This document shows, piece after piece, positions 23,138-38,196 of a stretch of DNA of 64,000 bases. Every line of letters begins with the position of its first letter. Position 1 is the first letter of the stretch. Below the pieces are notes generated by a model. That model was not told the origin of the DNA and did not search any database. It worked only from the letters and a program-made list of their open reading frames with translations. The stretch is from TPA_inf: Saccharomyces (taxonomy: Eukaryota), in assembly GCA_000146045.2 (NCBI GenBank), contig BK006943.2, positions 448,001-512,000 of the forward strand, read 5' to 3'. The position numbers were made by a program, and so were the translations under genes.

Positions 23138-23671
23138 TTAATTAGATTGAGGGCGTGCGTAGTTTAACGTCTTGCAATGGAAACATGTCCTCTTTTCGAC
23201 ATCATTTTCAAAATCTAAAATGGCTTCTTTCACTTGGGTACCTAAGTCTAACATTTGCAGTTCACTCTCGTGGACCACTTGGCGACAATGAGAACAGTAC
23301 CACCTTATCTTATCGTTTTCTCCCCCAGGCCTATCTTGTTCCACAACAATACCCACAGTATCAGCAAACCGAACAGGACTGTGAGGAACATTTCCTGGCA
23401 ATAAATATGAATCGCCTTCATTGATGATGATATCAATGAACTTTGGTTCAGCGTCTGTCTCATCCACAACCTTTAAAAGCATAGATCCTTTTTTTTGATA
23501 GAACCATTCGGGAGTTGGATTGATGTGATAACCGGTTCTTTCATTAGGCCCACCGACAATCATCACAGTGAATCCCCCTTTATGTAAGCAATAATTATTC
23601 ACCGGTGGTTTCAAAAGGCCTTCGTTCTCCTTCAACCATTTGTCGATATTAATTGGTGTAGTATTAAACAT
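23138..23671 (-). CDS. BNA1: 3-hydroxyanthranilate 3,4-dioxygenase (cupin) of NAD biosynthesis, 177 aa.
   Basis: Full ORF with a cupin fold. The product matches BNA1 (YJR025C). Confidence 0.9.
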
Positions 23672-24158
23672 TTTTTTCGATTTTTTTGGTAAATGTATGC
23701 TATTTCAGTTACTTGTAGACTGTCGTGAAAAGAATAAAGAAAGAATCTTTTACGTCCGTTTTTTTACTTTGCCGAATATGTTTCAGTGACTCACAATTTA
23801 TCCTGACGCCGTCACAAAGGCAGCCATTCCATTGCAATAACGACACTCTGAATATTCACGAACGTTCACCAGACATTTGGAGGCAGCGTTCTAAATGCCG
23901 ATACCCGTTCAGGAGTACAGGTGTCAGTGACAGAAAAATAATGGCACCGTTGACGTCGAAAATACATCCGCGCAAATTTTGACAGGCTATTTTGGCAGCG
24001 CAATCAAAGAATAAACTTGGTATAGTAAGGAAGCCAGTTACTGTACGCATGAATTACGGTAGCTTTTTTTATTTTATTTATTTTTTTTTTTTTTGGACAA
24101 ATAGAAAAATTTTTATTATTATGTAAGATTATTGAAGTAAAAATACAATTGGACGAAT

Positions 24159-24462
24159 CTAGTTAGATTGCCAAGATGTGTTAAAAGGCAAGATTAACTT
24201 ATGAACATGATCTACAACGTCCTGGTTTTTAAATTCGAGTAAATACGCCTCCTTTTTATCTGTGAATGACAGTCCTGTTCTCCCAAGTCTTTTTACATCA
24301 TGGAGACGGGAGTTATACTCTCTCGGGTACAAGGTTCCTTCAGCATCAGAACAGATCACAAACTTTATCGCAACAACAATTCCTTTATATTCCTGGGAAA
24401 ATATGTCGGTATAGCCTACTCGAGACGGCTTCCAAACATCAGCTTTCGTTTTAACATGTTGC
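24159..24462 (-). pseudogene. Orphaned 3' fragment (about 101 codons plus a stop) of YJR030C, severed from the gene by the Ty1 array.
   Basis: If the Ty array is removed and one GTTGC copy kept, the YJR030C frame (…SVKVRQ) continues as HVKTKADVWKPSRVGYTDIF…WQSN* with no frameshift. The 111-aa ORF at 24159..24494 is this fragment plus 4 LTR-encoded codons. Confidence 0.6.
24458..24462. repeat. Left copy of the 5-bp target-site duplication GTTGC.
   Basis: GTTGC immediately precedes the LTR at 24463. An identical GTTGC follows the LTR at 35972. Confidence 0.8.
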
Positions 24463-24800
24463 TGTTGGAATAAAAATCCACTATCGTCTATCAACTAATA
24501 GTTATATTATCAATATATTATCATATACGGTGTTAAGATGATGACATAAGTTATGAGAAGCTGTCATCGAAGTTAGAGGAAGCTGAAACGCAAGGATTGA
24601 TAATGTAATAGGATCAATGAATATAAACATATAAAACGGAATGAGGAATAATCGTAATATTAGTATGTAGAAATATAGATTCCATTTTGAGGATTCCTAT
24701 ATCCTCGAGGAGAACTTCTAGTATATTCTGTATACCTAATATTATAGCCTTTATCAACAATGGAATCCCAACAATTATCTCAACATTCACATATTTCTCA
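24463..24800 (+). repeat. Ty1 LTR (delta), 338 bp, type 'A' (TGTTGGAATAAAAATCCACTATCGTC…).
   Basis: It carries the TGTTGG and TCTCA termini and contains the TYA ATG at 24760. It appears identical by eye to the LTR at 35635..35972. Confidence 0.9.
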
Positions 24801-26082
24801 TGGTAGCGCCTGTGCTTCGGTTACTTCTAAGGAAGTCCACACAAATCAAGATCCGTTAGACGTTTCAGCTTCCAAAACAGAAGAATGTGAGAAGGCTTCC
24901 ACTAAGGCTAACTCTCAACAGACAACAACACCTGCTTCATCAGCTGTTCCAGAGAACCCCCATCATGCCTCTCCTCAACCTGCTTCAGTACCACCTCCAC
25001 AGAATGGGCCGTACCCACAGCAGTGCATGATGACCCAAAACCAAGCCAATCCATCTGGTTGGTCATTTTACGGACACCCATCTATGATTCCGTATACACC
25101 TTATCAAATGTCGCCTATGTACTTTCCACCTGGGCCACAATCACAGTTTCCGCAGTATCCATCATCAGTTGGAACGCCTCTGAGCACTCCATCACCTGAG
25201 TCAGGTAATACATTTACTGATTCATCCTCAGCGGACTCTGATATGACATCCACTAAAAAATATGTCAGACCACCACCAATGTTAACCTCACCTAATGACT
25301 TTCCAAATTGGGTTAAAACATACATCAAATTTTTACAAAACTCGAATCTCGGTGGTATTATTCCGACAGTAAACGGAAAACCCGTACGTCAGATCACTGA
25401 TGATGAACTCACCTTCTTGTATAACACTTTTCAAATATTTGCTCCCTCTCAATTCCTACCTACCTGGGTCAAAGACATCCTATCCGTTGATTATACGGAT
25501 ATCATGAAAATTCTTTCCAAAAGTATTGAAAAAATGCAATCTGATACCCAAGAGGCAAACGACATTGTGACCCTGGCAAATTTGCAATATAATGGCAGTA
25601 CACCTGCAGATGCATTTGAAACAAAAGTCACAAACATTATCGACAGACTGAACAATAATGGCATTCATATCAATAACAAGGTCGCATGCCAATTAATTAT
25701 GAGAGGTCTATCTGGCGAATATAAATTTTTACGCTACACACGTCATCGACATCTAAATATGACAGTCGCTGAACTGTTCTTAGATATCCATGCTATTTAT
25801 GAAGAACAACAGGGATCGAGAAACAGCAAACCTAATTACAGGAGAAATCTGAGTGATGAGAAGAATGATTCTCGCAGCTATACGAATACAACCAAACCCA
25901 AAGTTATAGCTCGGAATCCTCAAAAAACAAATAATTCGAAATCGAAAACAGCCAGGGCTCACAATGTATCCACATCTAATAACTCTCCCAGCACGGACAA
26001 CGATTCCATCAGTAAATCAACTACTGAACCGATTCAATTGAACAATAAGCACGACCTTCACCTTAGGCCAGGAACTTACTGA
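24760..26082 (+). CDS. TYA1: Ty1 Gag (TYA), 440 aa.
   Basis: [22 protein letters not shown]… canonical Ty1 Gag. The ATG lies inside the 5' LTR. Confidence 0.95.
26062..26068 (+). other. Ty1 +1 programmed ribosomal frameshift heptamer CUU-AGG-C.
   Basis: Exact CTTAGGC. CTT and AGG are Gag codons 435 and 436, and GGC at 26066..26068 is in frame with the TYB ORF. Confidence 0.9.
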
Positions 26083-29000
26083 ATCTACGGTAAATCACAC
26101 TAATCATTCTGATGATGAACTCCCTGGACACCTCCTTCTCGATTCAGGAGCATCACGAACCCTTATAAGATCTGCTCATCACATACACTCAGCATCATCT
26201 AATCCTGACATAAACGTAGTTGATGCTCAAAAAAGAAATATACCAATTAACGCTATTGGTGACCTACAATTTCACTTCCAGGACAACACCAAAACATCAA
26301 TAAAGGTATTGCACACTCCTAACATAGCCTATGACTTACTCAGTTTGAATGAATTGGCTGCAGTAGATATCACAGCATGCTTTACCAAAAACGTCTTAGA
26401 ACGATCTGACGGCACTGTACTTGCACCTATCGTACAATATGGAGACTTTTACTGGGTATCTAAAAGGTACTTGCTTCCATCAAATATCTCCGTACCCACC
26501 ATCAATAATGTCCATACAAGTGAAAGTACACGCAAATATCCTTATCCTTTCATTCATCGAATGCTTGCGCATGCCAATGCACAGACAATTCGATACTCAC
26601 TTAAAAATAACACCATCACGTATTTTAACGAATCAGATGTCGACTGGTCTAGTGCTATTGACTATCAATGTCCTGATTGTTTAATCGGCAAAAGCACCAA
26701 ACACAGACATATCAAAGGTTCACGACTAAAATACCAAAATTCATACGAACCCTTTCAATACCTACATACTGACATATTTGGTCCAGTTCACAACCTACCA
26801 AAAAGTGCACCATCCTATTTCATCTCATTTACTGATGAGACAACAAAATTCCGTTGGGTTTATCCATTACACGACCGTCGCGAGGACTCTATCCTCGATG
26901 TTTTTACTACGATACTAGCTTTTATTAAGAACCAGTTTCAGGCCAGTGTCTTGGTTATACAAATGGACCGTGGTTCTGAGTATACTAACAGAACTCTCCA
27001 TAAATTCCTTGAAAAAAATGGTATAACTCCATGCTATACAACCACAGCGGATTCCCGAGCACATGGAGTCGCTGAACGGCTCAACCGTACCTTATTAGAT
27101 GACTGCCGTACTCAACTGCAATGTAGTGGTTTACCGAACCATTTATGGTTCTCTGCAATCGAATTTTCTACTATTGTGAGAAATTCACTAGCTTCACCTA
27201 AAAGCAAAAAATCTGCAAGACAACATGCTGGCTTGGCAGGACTTGATATCAGTACTTTGTTACCTTTCGGTCAACCTGTTATCGTCAATGATCACAACCC
27301 TAACTCCAAAATACATCCTCGTGGCATCCCAGGTTACGCTCTACATCCGTCTCGAAACTCTTATGGATATATCATCTATCTTCCATCCTTAAAGAAGACA
27401 GTAGATACAACTAACTATGTTATTCTTCAGGGCAAGGAATCCAGATTAGATCAATTCAATTACGACGCACTCACTTTCGATGAAGACTTAAACCGTTTAA
27501 CTGCTTCATATCAATCGTTCATTGCGTCAAATGAGATCCAAGAATCCAATGATCTTAACATAGAATCTGACCATGACTTCCAATCTGACATTGAACTACA
27601 TCCTGAGCAACCGAGAAATGTCCTTTCAAAAGCTGTGAGTCCAACCGATTCCACACCTCCGTCAACTCATACTGAAGATTCGAAACGTGTTTCTAAAACC
27701 AATATTCGCGCACCCAGAGAAGTTGACCCCAACATATCTGAATCTAATATTCTTCCATCAAAGAAGAGATCTAGCACCCCCCAAATTTCCAATATCGAGA
27801 GTACCGGTTCGGGTGGTATGCATAAATTAAATGTTCCTTTACTTGCTCCCATGTCCCAATCTAACACACATGAGTCGTCGCACGCCAGTAAATCTAAAGA
27901 TTTCAGACACTCAGACTCGTACAGTGAAAATGAGACTAATCATACAAACGTACCAATATCCAGTACGGGTGGTACCAACAACAAAACTGTTCCGCAGATA
28001 AGTGACCAAGAGACTGAGAAAAGGATTATACACCGTTCACCTTCAATCGATGCTTCTCCACCGGAAAATAATTCATCGCACAATATTGTTCCTATCAAAA
28101 CGCCAACTACTGTTTCTGAACAGAATACCGAGGAATCTATCATCGCTGATCTCCCACTCCCTGATCTACCTCCAGAATCTCCTACCGAATTCCCTGACCC
28201 ATTTAAAGAACTCCCACCGATAAATTCTCATCAAACTAATTCCAGTTTGGGTGGTATTGGTGACTCTAATGCCTATACTACTATCAACAGTAAGAAAAGA
28301 TCATTAGAAGATAATGAAACTGAAATTAAGGTATCACGAGACACATGGAATACTAAGAATATGCGTAGTTTAGAACCTCCGAGATCGAAGAAACGAATTC
28401 ACCTGATTGCAGCTGTAAAAGCAGTAAAATCAATCAAACCAATACGGACAACCTTACGATACGATGAGGCAATCACCTATAATAAAGATATTAAAGAAAA
28501 AGAAAAATATATCGAGGCATACCACAAAGAAGTCAATCAACTGTTGAAGATGAAAACTTGGGACACTGACGAATATTATGACAGAAAAGAAATAGACCCT
28601 AAAAGAGTAATAAACTCAATGTTTATCTTCAACAAGAAACGTGACGGTACTCATAAAGCTAGATTTGTTGCAAGAGGTGACATTCAGCATCCTGATACGT
28701 ACGATACAGGTATGCAATCCAACACTGTACATCATTATGCGTTGATGACATCCCTGTCACTTGCATTAGACAATAACTACTATATTACACAATTAGACAT
28801 ATCTTCGGCATATTTGTATGCAGACATCAAAGAAGAATTATACATAAGACCTCCACCACATTTAGGAATGAATGATAAGTTGATACGTTTGAAGAAATCA
28901 CATTATGGATTGAAACAAAGTGGAGCGAACTGGTACGAAACTATCAAATCATACCTGATAAAACAGTGTGGTATGGAAGAAGTTCGTGGATGGTCATGCG

Positions 29001-30028
29001 TATTTAAGAATAGTCAAGTAACAATTTGCTTATTCGTTGATGATATGATATTGTTCAGCAAAGACTTAAATGCAAATAAGAAAATCATAACAACACTCAA
29101 GAAACAATACGATACAAAGATAATAAATCTGGGTGAAAGTGATAACGAAATTCAGTACGACATACTTGGCTTAGAAATCAAATATCAAAGAGGTAAATAC
29201 ATGAAATTAGGTATGGAAAACTCATTAACTGAGAAAATACCCAAATTAAACGTACCTTTGAATCCAAAAGGAAGAAAACTTAGCGCTCCAGGTCAACCAG
29301 GTCTTTATATAGACCAGGATGAACTAGAAATAGATGAAGATGAATACAAAGAGAAGGTACATGAAATGCAAAAGTTGATTGGTCTAGCTTCATATGTTGG
29401 ATATAAATTTAGATTTGACTTACTATACTACATCAACACACTTGCTCAACATATACTATTCCCCTCTAGGCAAGTTTTAGACATGACATATGAGTTAATA
29501 CAATTCATGTGGGACACTAGAGATAAACAACTGATATGGCACAAAAACAAACCTACCGAGCCAGATAATAAACTAGTCGCAATAAGCGATGCTTCATATG
29601 GTAACCAACCATATTACAAGTCACAAATTGGTAACATTTTCCTACTCAACGGAAAAGTGATTGGAGGAAAGTCGACAAAGGCTTCATTAACATGTACTTC
29701 AACTACGGAAGCAGAAATACACGCGATAAGTGAATCTGTCCCATTATTAAATAATCTAAGTTACCTGATACAAGAACTTAACAAGAAACCAATTATTAAA
29801 GGCTTACTTACTGATAGTAGATCAACGATCAGTATAATTAAGTCTACAAATGAAGAGAAATTTAGAAACAGATTTTTTGGCACAAAGGCAATGAGACTTA
29901 GAGATGAAGTATCAGGTAATAATTTATACGTATACTACATCGAGACCAAGAAGAACATTGCTGATGTGATGACAAAACCTCTTCCGATAAAAACATTTAA
30001 ACTATTAACTAACAAATGGATTCATTAG
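26066..30028 (+). CDS. TYB1: Ty1 Pol (TYB) reading frame encoding protease, integrase and reverse transcriptase/RNase H. It is expressed as Gag-Pol join(24760..26064,26066..30028), 1755 aa.
   Basis: The frame is open from the frameshift site to 30028. Integrase HHCC and DD35E motifs and the RT YVDDM motif (FVDDMILFS) are present. Confidence 0.9.
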
Positions 30029-30050
30029 ATCTATTACATTATGGGTGGTA

Positions 30051-30382
30051 TGTTGGAATAGAAATCAACTATCATCTACTAACTAGTATTTACATTACTA
30101 GTATATTATCATATACGGTGTTAGAAGATGACGCAAATGATGAGAAATAGTCATCTAAATTAGTGGAAGCTGAAACGCAAGGATTGATAATGTAATAGGA
30201 TCAATGAATATAAACATATAAAATGATGATAATAATATTTATAGAATTGTGTAGAATTGCAGATTCCCTTTTATGGATTCCTAAATCCTTGAGGAGAACT
30301 TCTAGTATATTCTGTATACCTAATATTATAGCCTTTATCAACAATGGAATCCCAACAATTATCTCAACATTCACATATTTCT
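30051..30382 (+). repeat. Shared central Ty1 LTR, 332 bp, type 'B' (TGTTGGAATAGAAATCAACTATCATCTACTAAC…).
   Basis: Its U3 region differs from the two outer LTRs at many positions. The R/U5 end is identical. Confidence 0.9.
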
Positions 30383-31666
30383 CATGGTAGCGCCTGTGCT
30401 TCGGTTACTTCTAAGGAAGTCCACACAAATCAAGATCCGTTAGACGTTTCAGCTTCCAAAACAGAAGAATGTGAGAAGGCTTCCACTAAGGCTAACTCTC
30501 AACAGACAACAACACCTGCTTCATCAGCTGTTCCAGAGAACCCCCATCATGCCTCTCCTCAAACTGCTCAGTCACATTCACCACAGAATGGGCCGTACCC
30601 ACAGCAGTGCATGATGACCCAAAACCAAGCCAATCCATCTGGTTGGTCATTTTACGGACACCCATCTATGATTCCGTATACACCTTATCAAATGTCGCCT
30701 ATGTACTTTCCACCTGGGCCACAATCACAGTTTCCGCAGTATCCATCATCAGTTGGAACGCCTCTGAGCACTCCATCACCTGAGTCAGGTAATACATTTA
30801 CTGATTCATCCTCAGCGGACTCTGATATGACATCCACTAAAAAATATGTCAGACCACCACCAATGTTAACCTCACCTAATGACTTTCCAAATTGGGTTAA
30901 AACATACATCAAATTTTTACAAAACTCGAATCTCGGTGGTATTATTCCGACAGTAAACGGAAAACCCGTACGTCAGATCACTGATGATGAACTCACCTTC
31001 TTGTATAACACTTTTCAAATATTTGCTCCCTCTCAATTCCTACCTACCTGGGTCAAAGACATCCTATCCGTTGATTATACGGATATCATGAAAATTCTTT
31101 CCAAAAGTATTGAAAAAATGCAATCTGATACCCAAGAGGCAAACGACATTGTGACCCTGGCAAATTTGCAATATAATGGCAGTACACCTGCAGATGCATT
31201 TGAAACAAAAGTCACAAACATTATCGACAGACTGAACAATAATGGCATTCATATCAATAACAAGGTCGCATGCCAATTAATTATGAGAGGTCTATCTGGC
31301 GAATATAAATTTTTACGCTACACACGTCATCGACATCTAAATATGACAGTCGCTGAACTGTTCTTAGATATCCATGCTATTTATGAAGAACAACAGGGAT
31401 CGAGAAACAGTAAACCTAATTACAGGAGAAATCCGAGTGATGAGAAGAATGATTCTCGCAGCTATACGAATACAACCAAACCCAAAGTTATAGCTCGGAA
31501 TCCTCAAAAAACAAATAATTCGAAATCGAAAACAGCCAGGGCTCACAATGTATCCACATCTAATAACTCTCCCAGCACGGACAACGATTCCATCAGTAAA
31601 TCAACTACTGAACCGATTCAATTGAACAATAAGCACGACCTTCATCTTAGGCCAGAAACTTACTGA
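30344..31666 (+). CDS. TYA1: Ty1 Gag (TYA), copy 2, 440 aa.
   Basis: Differs from copy 1 at a few residues, for example …[14 protein letters not shown]… versus …[14 protein letters not shown]…. Confidence 0.95.
31646..31652 (+). other. Ty1 +1 frameshift heptamer CUU-AGG-C, copy 2.
   Basis: Exact CTTAGGC in the Gag frame. Confidence 0.9.
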
Positions 31667-34600
31667 ATCTACAGTAAATCATACTAATCATTCTGATGAT
31701 GAACTCCCTGGACACCTCCTTCTCGATTCAGGAGCATCACGAACCCTTATAAGATCTGCTCATCACATACACTCAGCATCATCTAATCCTGACATAAACG
31801 TAGTTGATGCTCAAAAAAGAAATATACCAATTAACGCTATTGGTGACCTACAATTTCACTTCCAGGACAACACCAAAACATCAATAAAGGTATTGCACAC
31901 TCCTAACATAGCCTATGACTTACTCAGTTTGAATGAATTGGCTGCAGTAGATATCACAGCATGCTTTACCAAAAACGTCTTAGAACGGTCTGACGGCACT
32001 GTACTTGCACCTATCGTAAAATATGGAGACTTTTACTGGGTATCTAAAAAGTACTTGCTTCCATCAAATATCTCCGTACCCACCATCAATAATGTCCATA
32101 CAAGTGAAAGTACACGCAAATATCCTTATCCTTTCATTCATCGAATGCTTGCGCATGCCAATGCACAGACAATTCGATACTCACTTAAAAATAACACCAT
32201 CACGTATTTTAACGAATCAGATGTCGACTGGTCTAGTGCTATTGACTATCAATGTCCTGATTGTTTAATCGGCAAAAGCACCAAACACAGACATATCAAA
32301 GGTTCACGACTAAAATACCAAAATTCATACGAACCCTTTCAATACCTACATACTGACATATTTGGTCCAGTTCACAACCTACCAAAAAGTGCACCATCCT
32401 ATTTCATCTCATTTACTGATGAGACAACAAAATTCCGTTGGGTTTATCCATTACACGACCGTCGCGAGGACTCTATCCTCGATGTTTTTACTACGATACT
32501 AGCTTTTATTAAGAACCAGTTTCAGGCCAGTGTCTTGGTTATACAAATGGACCGTGGTTCTGAGTATACTAACAGAACTCTCCATAAATTCCTTGAAAAA
32601 AATGGTATAACTCCATGCTATACAACCACAGCGGATTCCCGAGCACATGGAGTCGCTGAACGGCTCAACCGTACCTTATTAGATGACTGCCGTACTCAAC
32701 TGCAATGTAGTGGTTTACCGAACCATTTATGGTTCTCTGCAATCGAATTTTCTACTATTGTGAGAAATTCACTAGCTTCACCTAAAAGCAAAAAATCTGC
32801 AAGACAACATGCTGGCTTGGCAGGACTTGATATCAGTACTTTGTTACCTTTCGGTCAACCTGTTATCGTCAATGATCACAACCCTAACTCCAAAATACAT
32901 CCTCGTGGCATCCCAGGCTACGCTCTACATCCGTCTCGAAACTCTTATGGATATATCATCTATCTTCCATCCTTAAAGAAGACAGTAGATACAACTAACT
33001 ATGTTATTCTTCAGGGCAAGGAATCCAGATTAGATCAATTCAATTACGACGCACTCACTTTCGATGAAGACTTAAACCGTTTAACTGCTTCATATCAATC
33101 GTTCATTGCGTCAAATGAGATCCAACAATCCGATGATCTTAACATAGAATCTGACCATGACTTCCAATCTGACATCGAACTACATCCTGAGCAACCGAGA
33201 AATGTCCTTTCAAAAGCTGTGAGTCCAACCGATTCCACACCTCCGTCAACTCATACTGAAGATTCGAAACGTGTTTCTAAAACCAATATTCGCGCACCCA
33301 GAGAAGTTGACCCCAACATATCTGAATCTAATATTCTTCCATCAAAGAAGAGATCTAGCACCCCCCAAATTTCCAATATCGAGAGTACCGGTTCGGGTGG
33401 TATGCATAAATTAAATGTTCCTTTACTTGCTCCCATGTCCCAATCTAACACACATGAGTCGTCGCACGCCAGTAAATCTAAAGATTTCAGACACTCAGAC
33501 TCGTACAGTGAAAATGAGACTAATCATACAAACGTACCAATATCCAGTACGGGTGGTACCAACAACAAAACTGTTCCGCAGATAAGTGACCAAGAGACTG
33601 AGAAAAGGATTATACACCGTTCACCTTCAATCGATGCTTCTCCACCGGAAAATAATTCATCGCACAATATTGTTCCTATCAAAACGCCAACTACTGTTTC
33701 TGAACAGAATACCGAGGAATCTATCATCGCTGATCTCCCACTCCCTGATCTACCTCCAGAATCTCCTACCGAATTCCCTGACCCATTTAAAGAACTCCCA
33801 CCGATCAATTCTCGTCAAACTAATTCCAGTTTGGGTGGTATTGGTGACTCTAATGCCTATACTACTATCAACAGTAAGAAAAGATCATTAGAAGATAATG
33901 AAACTGAAATTAAGGTATCACGAGACACATGGAATACTAAGAATATGCGTAGTTTAGAACCTCCGAGATCGAAGAAACGAATTCACCTGATTGCAGCTGT
34001 AAAAGCAGTAAAATCAATCAAACCAATACGGACAACCTTACGATACGATGAGGCAATCACCTATAATAAAGATATTAAAGAAAAAGAAAAATATATCGAG
34101 GCATACCACAAAGAAGTCAATCAACTGTTGAAGATGAAAACTTGGGACACTGACGAATATTATGACAGAAAAGAAATAGACCCTAAAAGAGTAATAAACT
34201 CAATGTTTATCTTCAACAAGAAACGTGACGGTACTCATAAAGCTAGATTTGTTGCAAGAGGTGATATTCAGCATCCTGACACTTACGACTCAGGCATGCA
34301 ATCCAATACCGTACATCACTATGCATTAATGACATCCCTGTCACTTGCATTAGACAATAACTACTATATTACACAATTAGACATATCTTCGGCATATTTG
34401 TATGCAGACATCAAAGAAGAATTATACATAAGACCTCCACCACATTTAGGAATGAATGATAAGTTGATACGTTTGAAGAAATCACTTTATGGATTGAAAC
34501 AAAGTGGAGCGAACTGGTACGAAACTATCAAATCATACCTGATACAACAATGTGGTATGGAAGAAGTTCGTGGATGGTCATGCGTATTTAAAAACAGTCA

Positions 34601-35612
34601 AGTGACAATTTGTTTATTCGTAGATGATATGGTATTGTTTAGCAAAAATCTAAATTCAAACAAAAGAATTATAGAGAAGCTTAAGATGCAATACGACACC
34701 AAGATTATAAATCTAGGCGAAAGTGATGAGGAAATTCAATATGACATTCTTGGCTTGGAAATCAAATACCAAAGAGGTAAATACATGAAATTGGGTATGG
34801 AAAACTCATTAACTGAAAAAATACCCAAACTAAACGTACCTTTAAACCCAAAAGGAAGGAAACTTAGTGCTCCAGGTCAACCAGGTCTATATATAGACCA
34901 GCAAGAACTAGAGCTAGAAGAAGATGATTACAAAATGAAGGTACATGAAATGCAAAAGCTGATAGGTCTAGCATCATATGTTGGATATAAATTTAGATTT
35001 GACCTATTATACTACATCAACACACTTGCACAACATATACTATTTCCGTCCAAGCAAGTGTTAGATATGACATATGAATTGATACAGTTCATATGGAATA
35101 CGAGAGATAAGCAATTAATATGGCACAAAAGCAAACCTGTTAAGCCAACAAATAAATTAGTTGTTATAAGCGATGCCTCGTATGGCAACCAACCGTATTA
35201 TAAATCACAAATTGGCAACATATATTTACTTAATGGAAAGGTAATTGGAGGAAAGTCCACCAAGGCTTCATTAACATGTACTTCAACTACGGAAGCAGAA
35301 ATACACGCGATAAGTGAATCTGTCCCATTATTAAATAATCTAAGTTACCTGATACAAGAACTTGACAAGAAACCAATTACCAAAGGATTACTAACCGACA
35401 GTAAATCTACAATCAGTATAATTATATCCAATAATGAAGAGAAATTTAGGAACAGATTTTTTGGTACTAAAGCAATGAGATTGAGAGATGAAGTATCAGG
35501 AAATCATCTGCACGTATGCTATATCGAAACCAAAAAGAATATTGCAGACGTAATGACCAAACCTCTTCCGATAAAAACATTCAAACTATTAACAAACAAA
35601 TGGATTCATTAG
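31650..35612 (+). CDS. TYB1: Ty1 Pol (TYB) reading frame, copy 2. Gag-Pol is join(30344..31648,31650..35612).
   Basis: Intact frame. Its amino-acid differences from copy 1 are clustered in the RT/RNase H C-terminal third. Confidence 0.9.
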
Positions 35613-35634
35613 ATCTATTACATTATGGGTGGTA

Positions 35635-35972
35635 TGTTGGAATAAAAATCCACTATCGTCTATCAACTAATAGTTATATTATCAATATATTATCATATAC
35701 GGTGTTAAGATGATGACATAAGTTATGAGAAGCTGTCATCGAAGTTAGAGGAAGCTGAAACGCAAGGATTGATAATGTAATAGGATCAATGAATATAAAC
35801 ATATAAAACGGAATGAGGAATAATCGTAATATTAGTATGTAGAAATATAGATTCCATTTTGAGGATTCCTATATCCTCGAGGAGAACTTCTAGTATATTC
35901 TGTATACCTAATATTATAGCCTTTATCAACAATGGAATCCCAACAATTATCTCAACATTCACATATTTCTCA
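35635..35972 (+). repeat. Ty1 LTR, 338 bp, type 'A', the 3' LTR of copy 2.
   Basis: It is preceded by the polypurine tract TGGGTGGTA and followed by the target-site duplication GTTGC at 35973..35977. Confidence 0.9.
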
Positions 35973-38196
35973 GTTGCCTTACTTTAACAGAAGATAACAG
36001 AAGTGAAGAACTTATATATTCTGATGAGTCTTTCATATTAGCCAATTCTGAATTTTCAGTAGATGATCTAGTAACATTACGACTGAAGCATGAAGACGAA
36101 GATACCGTTGATAAAGTTCCTGTGGTGGTTGAGGGTGAAAGGGATGATGTCTGGCTACTTTGTAACTGATATTGTAACACATTCACCAACTTAGCAGCTT
36201 GCGCACAGCGTATAGACAGCGTGAGATCGTGGAGTGTTCCAAATACACTAGCTTTGAAATCAGAGGAAGGAATCCGAAGTTGAACATCTTGTGCCGTTGA
36301 TCTATTGTACTTCCAGGTGGGTTCCAATTTCACAACCAATTTACACTTCTCCTTTTCGAAGTCTTTATATACAATTAGTAAGGTCTCGTTGTCTCCGGAT
36401 AAAATTAAAGACAAACACAGCATGTCCTTACTCAAAGGCACCCATGACTTGCCGTTCCAAAGGGAAACTTTTACCGAATCGTTTTCGAAATATACTGCTC
36501 CTCCAGATGTGTTTATGCTTAACGGAAACGATACATACGTTTCATCAACGTTATCGTCATGGGGGGTTGCTGATACCGGGGTAACTGATTGTTGATTGCC
36601 TGGCAAACTAAACAATGATCTTGAATGATTTTTGGGAATATCGATAGTTAGATTCTTTTTGTTTTTTGAGAAGATGCTTAGTAAAGATGAAGATTTACGC
36701 CGATAAAGCGTTGGCTTATAGAAATCGATATCTGGATCGAATAAATCTTTATCTCGTTTATCCTTTCCATCTTCAGAAATTATACTCTCAGAATCGTCAA
36801 TTTCAGACGCAACACTCTCTATTAGTTCGGGAGAGACACTCTCCAGGCTGAAAGTTTGAGAAGCTGTTCTAATGTTTTTTAAGGTAGGTGTGTCCATATA
36901 TTTAGGCGAGAGAGGTACTTGAATGCTCTTATCCAATTCAATTAGCTTTTCACAACTTAGGGATTCAATATCTTTCAGAGAGGTGTCAAGATCTGAATCT
37001 TCGCTAACTGTTGCCCTCTCACTCATGATTGACAGTGACTCCTCGTCAGGGTATTCATTAGAGGTCTCTATTAAGGAAGACAGACTTCCCGGCAAAGGAA
37101 TTGATCTATGCAGTGTGCGACCATTGTGTATTGTATCTGATATCTTTACAGAGCTAATAGGCATATCGTCATTTCTTTTAGGAGAAGTATAATCAGGGTT
37201 GTTACTCCTAACATAAACCTGTTGAGAAATTTTACTTCCAGATCGCTTGTATTCTTTTGTAGCTGTTGAGTCGAAAAGCTTTCTAATAACATGTTTCCAA
37301 TACTCTTGCCATTGAATAGGATCTTTGCAAGTTAACCTCAATACAATGCTATTATTTATCGGTACCTTTAGTTTTGCTCCACTATCATCAAGTCTGATGA
37401 GATCAAGATCGCCGGACCTAAATGGTCGAAATAGCAGCGACCTCCCGACATTCATTAAGTCATGGTTTCCTAACGCAAGGGATTGGAACAAGTTATCAAT
37501 GGTTTGTAATGTGTATGGCATTTTTTCAGAAAGAACCTCAAATATAGCTATCTCCCCATTATCTAATTCAAGGATTTCAACTAGTTTATTATTGATCGCC
37601 AACTTCTTTACATCTAGTCTGTAATATGCTCTATTTATAACCTTATTGGAATCGATTGGCGGAAGATTAATCAGGGAAACTTCGCCTGATATAACGTCAC
37701 GAACGCTTCCGTATTTCAGTGAGTTACAGCTTATAAAGTCATAGCAACTTTTAAATTTGTATACAAACGCACTGATTAGGGAGCCTAGTCGTACTTCATT
37801 TGTGACATAGAAAATGTCCCTCAACTTATAATAAACCTTGAATAGTAATACCGCAAAAAGCTTTTGTGAATCCATCCTAAAGTATGACATGTTCGCATCG
37901 AGAAGCAAATGCATACATCCAAATAAAAGATTATGATACAAATCGAGTATTTGCGCATCTTTGAATAAACTCTTGTAAGAATTCACTATGGATTGTGTTA
38001 GAGACATGTCATCATGATTTGCAGCATGCTTTCTCAAAATGCATCTCAAGTAACCGCTAATTTTTCTCATTTCATGACCAACTTTAACCATTGGGTCCAA
38101 GCTCGAACCATGGTACCTGCTATGGGACTCACAGACAACGAGTAATCGTTTTAACAGAGTCTCGAAGCTCGCTTCTTCCTTGTTAAATAATTCCAT
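35959..38196 (-). CDS. YJR030C, an uncharacterised 745-aa protein. Its last 4 codons and stop are supplied by Ty1 LTR sequence.
   Basis: The ORF is open 35959..38208. I prefer the Met at residue 5 (MELFNKEE…), giving 745 aa. Codons from the last C of the GCAAC target-site duplication copy onward (…LRNM*) lie inside the LTR at 35635..35972. Confidence 0.75.
35973..35977. repeat. Right copy of the 5-bp target-site duplication GTTGC.
   Basis: It matches 24458..24462. Confidence 0.8.

Follow-up and report, generated by a model that had tools for sequence, protein, structure and literature searches.

A tandem Ty1 array in the 3′ part of RBH2 (YJR030C) and the severed end of the gene beside BNA1

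Among the closest described parallels to the locus analyzed here is the HAP1-Ty1 allele of Saccharomyces cerevisiae S288C, in which a Ty1 element occupies the 3′ part of the coding sequence (Gaisne et al. 1999, cited in PMC12157680 and PMC3511429). A second case is the pair YBR012C/YBR013C, which a 2025 preprint, "Core gene set of the species Saccharomyces cerevisiae" (PMC12157680), proposes to be one gene split by Ty1 in S288C. YJR030C is absent from the main text of the same preprint.

The present locus is itself familiar from work on transposons. The tandem elements YJRWTy1-1 and YJRWTy1-2 have been described as a rearrangement hotspot "next to" YJR030C (PMC3291544), and the YJRWTy1 locus has served as a marked Ty1 locus, with MET15 placed "between YJRWTy1-2 and YJR030C" (PMC3522557). 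The protein Yjr030cp and its paralogue received their name, "Ran binding domain homologs" (Rbh1/Rbh2), from an analysis of the reference proteome (Fidler et al. 2016, PMC5091641). At the level of phenotype, allelic variation at YJR030C affects residual fructose, making it a validated residual-sugar QTL gene, and its deletion in wine and sake strains causes a strong growth-rate defect (Salinas et al. 2012, PMC3504119); that study mentions neither a Ty insertion nor a length difference at YJR030C. In the searchable literature we found no statement that YJR030C is truncated by a Ty element, and an earlier mention is possible in Kim et al. 1998 (Genome Res.) or in the supplement of PMC12157680. 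The kind of event, the YJRWTy1 locus, and 840-aa alleles in the databases are all already known; what appears to be unstated, in that no paper was found to say it, is the Ty truncation of YJR030C.

The Ty1 array and the interrupted gene

The window, by which we mean the whole stretch of 64 kb that was analyzed, holds a tandem Ty1 dimer at positions 24463-35972, in which two elements have a middle LTR in common and one target-site duplication serves the entire array, as determined by reading of the sequence and a scripted check. All three LTRs are ∼335 bp long, lie in the same (direct) orientation, have TG...CA termini, and start with TGTTGG and end with TCTCA, as is characteristic of Ty1. The left LTR (24463-24800, plus strand, 338 bp) opens with TGTTGGAATA at 24463, the right LTR (35635-35972, plus strand) closes with ...TCTCA at 35972, and the two are identical at 338/338 positions; the middle LTR (30051-30384, plus strand) is a divergent variant with 87.3% identity to the outer copies. 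The 5-bp duplication GTTGC, another Ty1 feature, stands at both ends of the array, on the left at 24458-24462 and on the right at 35973-35977, with unique DNA resuming at 35978, and it is present in a single copy in the four empty-site alleles described below (contigs L003-L006).

Element 1 (24463-30384, plus strand) carries a TYA ORF at 24760-26082 and a TYB-frame ORF at 26309-30028, and element 2 (30051-35972, plus strand) has the corresponding ORFs at 30344-31666 and 31893-35612. The two internal regions are 5250 bp each and 96.7% identical to one another, and both encode a 440-aa TYA (Gag) protein (Pfam TYA, E ∼1e-233; 1e-233 in element 1) together with a 1239-codon TYB (PR-IN-RT-RH) frame that has integrase and copia-type reverse-transcriptase domains (Pfam rve, SH3_retrovirus, and RVT_2). 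The chromosome annotation and the 440-aa TYA make Ty1, and not Ty2, the probable identity of the array.

The insertion point lies between codons 741 and 742 of RBH2, which is read from the minus strand. As a preliminary description of this DNA had claimed, the YJR030C frame enters the right LTR and stops there: the present ORF (35959-38196, minus strand) comprises 741 native residues, the tail LRNM, and a stop codon at 35959-35961, giving 745 aa from the first ATG, and it matches Rbh2p of S. cerevisiae S288C exactly. The protein ends in ...VRQ-LRNM*, where the codon of Gln741 falls, again as had been read, within the right GTTGC, and where the last 14 nt of the LTR, on the minus strand, provide most of the tail and the stop. 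That the tail is LTR-encoded holds for R, N, M, and the stop, which are entirely antisense LTR, and not for the Leu codon, which is made up of one base of the target-site duplication (35973) and two LTR bases. The published position of MET15 is between YJRWTy1-2 and YJR030C (PMC3522557), yet the ORF reaches 14 nt into the LTR.

The remainder of the gene is found on the far side of the array. When 24463-35977 is removed in silico, leaving one GTTGC and joining 24462 to 35978, the frame stays open across the empty site, as had been proposed, and yields an 840-aa ORF. Past Q741 it continues for 99 more residues, HVKTKADVWKP...NTSWQSN (HVKTKADVWKPSRVGYTDIF...LILPFNTSWQSN), to a stop at 24159-24161. 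The orphaned 3′ end of RBH2/YJR030C (24159-24462, minus strand) comprises the last base of the Arg740 codon, Gln741, residues 742-840, and this native stop; we identify it by frame continuity, identity to Ty-free alleles, conservation in alignments, and structure. The wider interval of 24159-24494 given in the preliminary description does hold the remnant, and is itself a mechanical ORF with a TTG start that takes in 32 nt of the left LTR. On balance, 99 native residues are lost and four foreign ones gained, a net change of −95 (840 to 745); the claim of a longer pre-insertion C-terminus is confirmed, at a full length of 840 aa and not the ∼850 expected. The chance of an equally long stop-free run is ∼5-6e-4 at this composition, in keeping with the earlier argument that a random open frame would be improbable, and the homology evidence below makes chance irrelevant. 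An in-frame ATG is absent from the remnant 24159-24462 and from its LTR extension.

Past the native stop, the 3′ flank of RBH2, which is at the same time the upstream region of BNA1 (23672-24158, minus strand), now lies 11.5 kb from the body of the gene. BNA1 itself (3-hydroxyanthranilate dioxygenase; 23138-23671, minus strand; Pfam 3-HAO, E 1.6e-75) is the downstream neighbor. The 487 bp that separate the RBH2 stop from the BNA1 start in the reconstructed window recur in S. paradoxus (contig L001) and in Ty-free S. cerevisiae loci, and the order GEA1-RBH2-BNA1, which the array interrupts in the window, is kept in S. paradoxus contigs L001 and L002 and in S. cerevisiae contigs L004 and L005. 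The coding end of RBH2 formerly continued at the place that the 5′ LTR of the array now occupies, ∼790 bp upstream of the start codon of BNA1 (window 23672-24462).

Ty-free alleles and the age of the insertion

By exact-sequence look-up, the 840-aa reconstruction is present without a change in a public protein collection, and many other named S. cerevisiae strains carry 840-aa alleles. At the DNA level, the filled site is represented by the 45-mer TTCACTTCTGTTATCTTCTGTTAAAGTAAGGCAACTGAGAAATAT and the empty site by the 60-mer TTCACTTCTGTTATCTTCTGTTAAAGTAAGGCAACATGTTAAAACGAAAGCTGATGTTTG. The latter junction, with its one GTTGC, occurs exactly in 4/4 Ty-free S. cerevisiae contigs (L003-L006), and the comparison with Ty-free strains bears out the longer gene in both protein and DNA. 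One of the four, L003 (Logan SRR9099583, 4740 bp), agrees with the array-deleted window at 100.000% of 3986 bp, and the other three are 99.45-99.52% identical to it. L003 has the pre-insertion haplotype of the reference lineage, and it could serve to date the insertion within the S288C pedigree.

The 745-aa allele, for its part, was seen in entries named S288C, and in EIW09552.1 (presumably CEN.PK113-7D), as well as in two other assemblies and numerous sequencing runs, and every contig with this allele has the same gene-to-LTR junction. Within the entries that these database look-ups covered, the Ty1-filled allele was observed in lab-type assemblies only. The earlier suspicion that the 745-aa product is a Ty-truncated allele with four foreign C-terminal residues is upheld by the 840 aa encoded in Ty-free alleles.

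Three observations bear on the age of the event. The outer LTRs do not differ at any position, a Ty-free haplotype matches the window at every position of 3986 bp, and no private substitution is found in the orphaned fragment. Because of these identities, the Ty1 insertion in RBH2 must be very young, and this youth is the reason why the severed 3′ remnant is still readable and letter-perfect. No selective explanation is needed for the intactness of the fragment.

The array seems to have had a history of its own. When the left and right elements are compared, the first ∼3.7 kb are nearly identical, and the last ∼1.5 kb (28551-30050 versus 34135-35634) are ∼13% different. Given the divergent middle LTR and end of the left element, together with a single target duplication for the whole array, we infer that the dimer could be accounted for by one integration and then homologous recombination with another Ty1-type sequence that differed from the first, possibly a Ty1/Ty2 hybrid.

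Pol III genes are the normal targets of Ty1. We therefore looked for a tRNA or other structured RNA gene that might have given a Pol III reason for the choice of target, and found none in the 64-kb window with ARAGORN and Rfam scans. Since no such gene was detected there, the array sits in an ORF far from Pol III genes, the distance to any that could have been detected being >24 kb, and such a target is atypical of Ty1. RBH2 adds another clean, very young case of Ty1 in an ORF distant from tRNA genes.

Conservation and predicted fold of the severed segment

A search with the 840-aa reconstruction retrieved Rbh2p of S. paradoxus (840 aa; 85% identity, 100% coverage) as well as orthologues from S. 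mikatae (836 aa), S. uvarum (839 aa), S. eubayanus (839 aa), and S. kudriavzevii (881 aa, the extra length being N-terminal only). Across these five Saccharomyces species, the orthologues of 836-881 aa cover 99-100% of the reconstruction and are co-linear with it to its last residues, which answers the check on sensu stricto species that the preliminary description had asked for, and no protein compared, whether Ty-free allele or orthologue, ends where the 745-aa product does. More distant homologues in the Saccharomycetaceae (841-885 aa) show 29-34% identity at 97-99% coverage. A 90%-identity cluster with S. cerevisiae Rbh2p also has sequences of Gea1p, the product of the neighboring gene (1408 aa), and it is represented by a 1408-aa entry that groups with Gea1p; this looks like a database clustering artefact, and it probably explains why no S. 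cerevisiae protein appeared in the first homology search.

The same comparisons place the reconstruction in the Rbh2/UPF0508/Pfam PF26660 (PH_41) family, with 97-100% of its length aligned to proteins of 836-885 aa at E values of 0 to 1e-73, each of which has a precomputed PF26660 match. In the orthologue alignment, eleven columns of the severed part are invariant: H742, W750, G756, I760, G800, R801, G803, L814, E816, F817, and L829. A profile of the last ∼118 residues, run against 1.84 billion representative proteins, found 38 cluster representatives, and in nearly all full-length matches (∼800-890 aa) no more than a few residues lie between the end of the domain and the C-terminus; the severed segment is likewise the extreme C-terminus in ∼30 more distant family representatives. 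As these matches end at or near the C-terminus, the second PH-like domain, described below, is the canonical end of the Rbh2 family. This family feature is present in the reconstruction and absent from the 745-aa product of the window, whose RBH2 is a truncated member of the family and not a non-member.

The constraint on the segment can also be gauged from substitution rates. Comparison of the reconstructed S. cerevisiae gene with that of S. paradoxus gives a dN/dS of 0.085 for codons 742-840, against 0.172 for codons 1-741; the severed segment is under strong purifying selection and is the more constrained part of the gene.

A local Pfam scan of the reconstruction and of the 99-aa fragment returned no significant family, the Pfam copy scanned being one from which PF26660 is absent, and for this reason the identity of the domain was taken from structure prediction. 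AlphaFold2 models residues 548-840 as two beta-sandwich-plus-helix domains with a disordered, Ser-rich linker between them. The second domain alone (residues 723-840) is predicted, from a shallow alignment of 10 sequences only, with a pLDDT of 87.6 and a pTM of 0.80 as a seven-stranded sandwich with a C-terminal helix, like solved RanBD and EVH1 structures of the PH-like fold. The Ty junction, Q741|H742, interrupts the first strand of this domain; all that the 745-aa product retains of the domain is ∼13 residues from a single strand, and it is the orphaned 24159-24462 that encodes predicted strands 2-7 and the C-terminal helix.

Foldseek comparison of the second domain with the PDB retrieved the Ran-binding domains of RanBP3, RanBP2, and RanBP1 and the EVH1 domains of Dcp1, Ena, and Homer (E 1e-4 to 1e-3, TM 0.60-0.68). 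The severed segment plus the 13 retained residues is thus confidently predicted to be a PH-like domain of the RanBD/EVH1 type, and the matches agree, at the level of modeled structure, with the Rbh name (PMC5091641). Both C-terminal domains of the reconstruction resemble the Ran-binding-domain/EVH1 branch in their seven-stranded sandwich with a C-terminal helix and in having RanBD/EVH1 domains as best structural matches. They differ from RanBDs in sequence, with an identity of 10-20% only, and the ligands typical of the two domain classes, Ran-GTP (RanBD) and proline-rich peptides (EVH1), are no more than candidates for the RBH2 domain. A PDB sequence search with a profile of the C-terminal domain gave chance-level matches only (E ∼0.8) and no solved RanBD. 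A recent internal duplication as the source of the two PH-like domains was considered and dropped, since hhalign found no sequence similarity between domain 1 and domain 2 (probability 0.2%).

The two-domain model, which spans residues 548-840 (window 24159-24462 and 35978-36555, minus strand), has a further match, at low TM and over ∼295 columns, in the DH-PH-PH modules of FARP1 and FARP2. A RhoGEF-like helical N-terminus has been described in Rbh1/2 (Fidler et al. 2016, PMC5091641), and full-length Rbh2 may be a degenerate GEF-like multi-PH protein. The S288C protein in that study was one without the second domain.

Proposed consequences and comparison with known insertions

In the course of events that the sequence shows, a single Ty1 integrated at codon 741/742 of RBH2 in a lineage of lab-type S. 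cerevisiae, leaving the GTTGC duplication as its mark, and the array later turned into a tandem dimer with three LTRs. As it stands, the gene is read antisense into the right LTR, gains L-R-N-M, and stops, which gives the 745-aa "reference" protein, while its final 99 codons are left, along with the native 3′ flank, 11.5 kb away beside BNA1. In the truncated protein the second PH-like domain would be unable to fold, and the truncated mRNA would have to use a 3′-end signal inside or beyond the LTR, not the native one. In a scan for textbook elements, which says nothing firm on the mRNA end, the minus strand of the right LTR had only weak yeast polyadenylation elements (AATATA at 35899, 35691, and 35680; TACATA at 35841) and neither TATATA nor AATAAA. 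The orphaned fragment is probably not translated, since it has no in-frame ATG.

We regard it as close to certain that Ty1 integration truncates RBH2 at codon 741/742 and that the 745-aa reference is a truncated allele of an 840-aa protein. The converse, namely that the in-register open frame is coincidental, or that the 745-aa end is the ancestral one and a fusion later produced the 840-aa form, could draw only on the prior of chance open frames (∼5e-4 at this length). It is refuted by the orthologues and their alignment, the 840-aa alleles, and the empty-site contigs: co-linearity to the last residue extends over orthologues from five Saccharomyces species and from more distant genera, the last four residues of the 745-aa form come from LTR sequence, and a target-site duplication flanks the array, all of which leaves this reading with a practically negligible probability. 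Another question is whether the orphaned fragment might be expressed alone, for instance as the mechanical 111-codon, TTG-start ORF at 24159-24494, if the left LTR drove antisense or read-out transcription; the product would be a partial PH-like peptide. Such an ORF does exist, and Ty1 antisense transcripts running through the 5′ LTR have been described. The lack of an in-frame ATG in the fragment and its LTR extension, a peptide that would come without strand 1 of the domain, and an intactness that the youth of the insertion fully explains nevertheless make this expression very improbable.

As for function, the loss of a domain and the purifying selection on it lead us to infer that the truncated rbh2 allele is probably hypomorphic or altered. 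It is also conceivable that the truncation, while real, is functionally neutral, the C-terminal domain being dispensable and the 745-aa protein doing all that the 840-aa protein does; a strain with the truncated allele is viable and healthy, and the truncation touches neither the first RanBD-like domain nor any of the N-terminal part. What speaks against neutrality is that no other part of the gene is as constrained between S. cerevisiae and S. paradoxus as the lost segment (dN/dS 0.085), that this segment is kept at the C-terminus in essentially all family members found, and that wine and sake strains, in which the distribution of alleles in the databases leads one to presume a full-length gene, show a strong growth-rate defect upon its deletion (PMC3504119). 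We consider neutrality possible, and on the whole doubtful. Tentatively, and with a little less than even confidence, we entertain a broader account of an altered rbh2: the S288C-type allele, deprived of its second domain and its native 3′ end, would be a hypomorph or change-of-function allele, the scarcity of RBH2 phenotypes and functional annotation from S288C-derived deletion, tagging, and interaction collections would partly be an artefact of the reference strain, the deletion defect in wine and sake strains would reflect a role of the full-length protein, and the lost domain would have been missed by surveys of the reference proteome.

Work on RBH2 has been confined almost entirely to S288C derivatives. 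With the reference allele truncated, the null or weak phenotypes, localization, and interaction data recorded for it would describe a protein minus a conserved domain and plus four LTR-encoded residues. Likewise, reagents built on the reference stop codon, such as deletion cassettes and C-terminal tags, would have their downstream homology wholly in LTR sequence. Indeed, the 45 nt past the present YJR030C stop (35914-35958, minus strand) are pure LTR with an exact copy at 24742-24786, 11.2 kb away, and with similar LTR sequence expected elsewhere in the genome, the downstream homology of cassettes designed on the reference ORF would not be unique. For QTL work that contrasts natural alleles with the reference, the Ty insertion is the major variant to consider.

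The Ty1 truncation of YJR030C is a correction to the reading of one reference gene. The kind of event is well known: it is an ordinary mutation that matters to users of this strain for the gene, and it brings nothing conceptually new. The resemblance to HAP1-Ty1 is close, in that a Ty1 of the S288C lineage lies in the 3′ part of a coding sequence and the altered C-terminus became the "reference", while other strains and species are intact. RBH2 differs from HAP1 in having a tandem dimer, in losing a complete predicted domain, and in that its defect is deduced where that of HAP1 is documented. With YBR012C/YBR013C (PMC12157680) it has in common that a strain-specific Ty1 inside a gene gave rise to an artefact of the reference annotation that was recognized by comparing strains. 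In that pair both halves are annotated as ORFs, whereas the RBH2 remnant is without a start codon.
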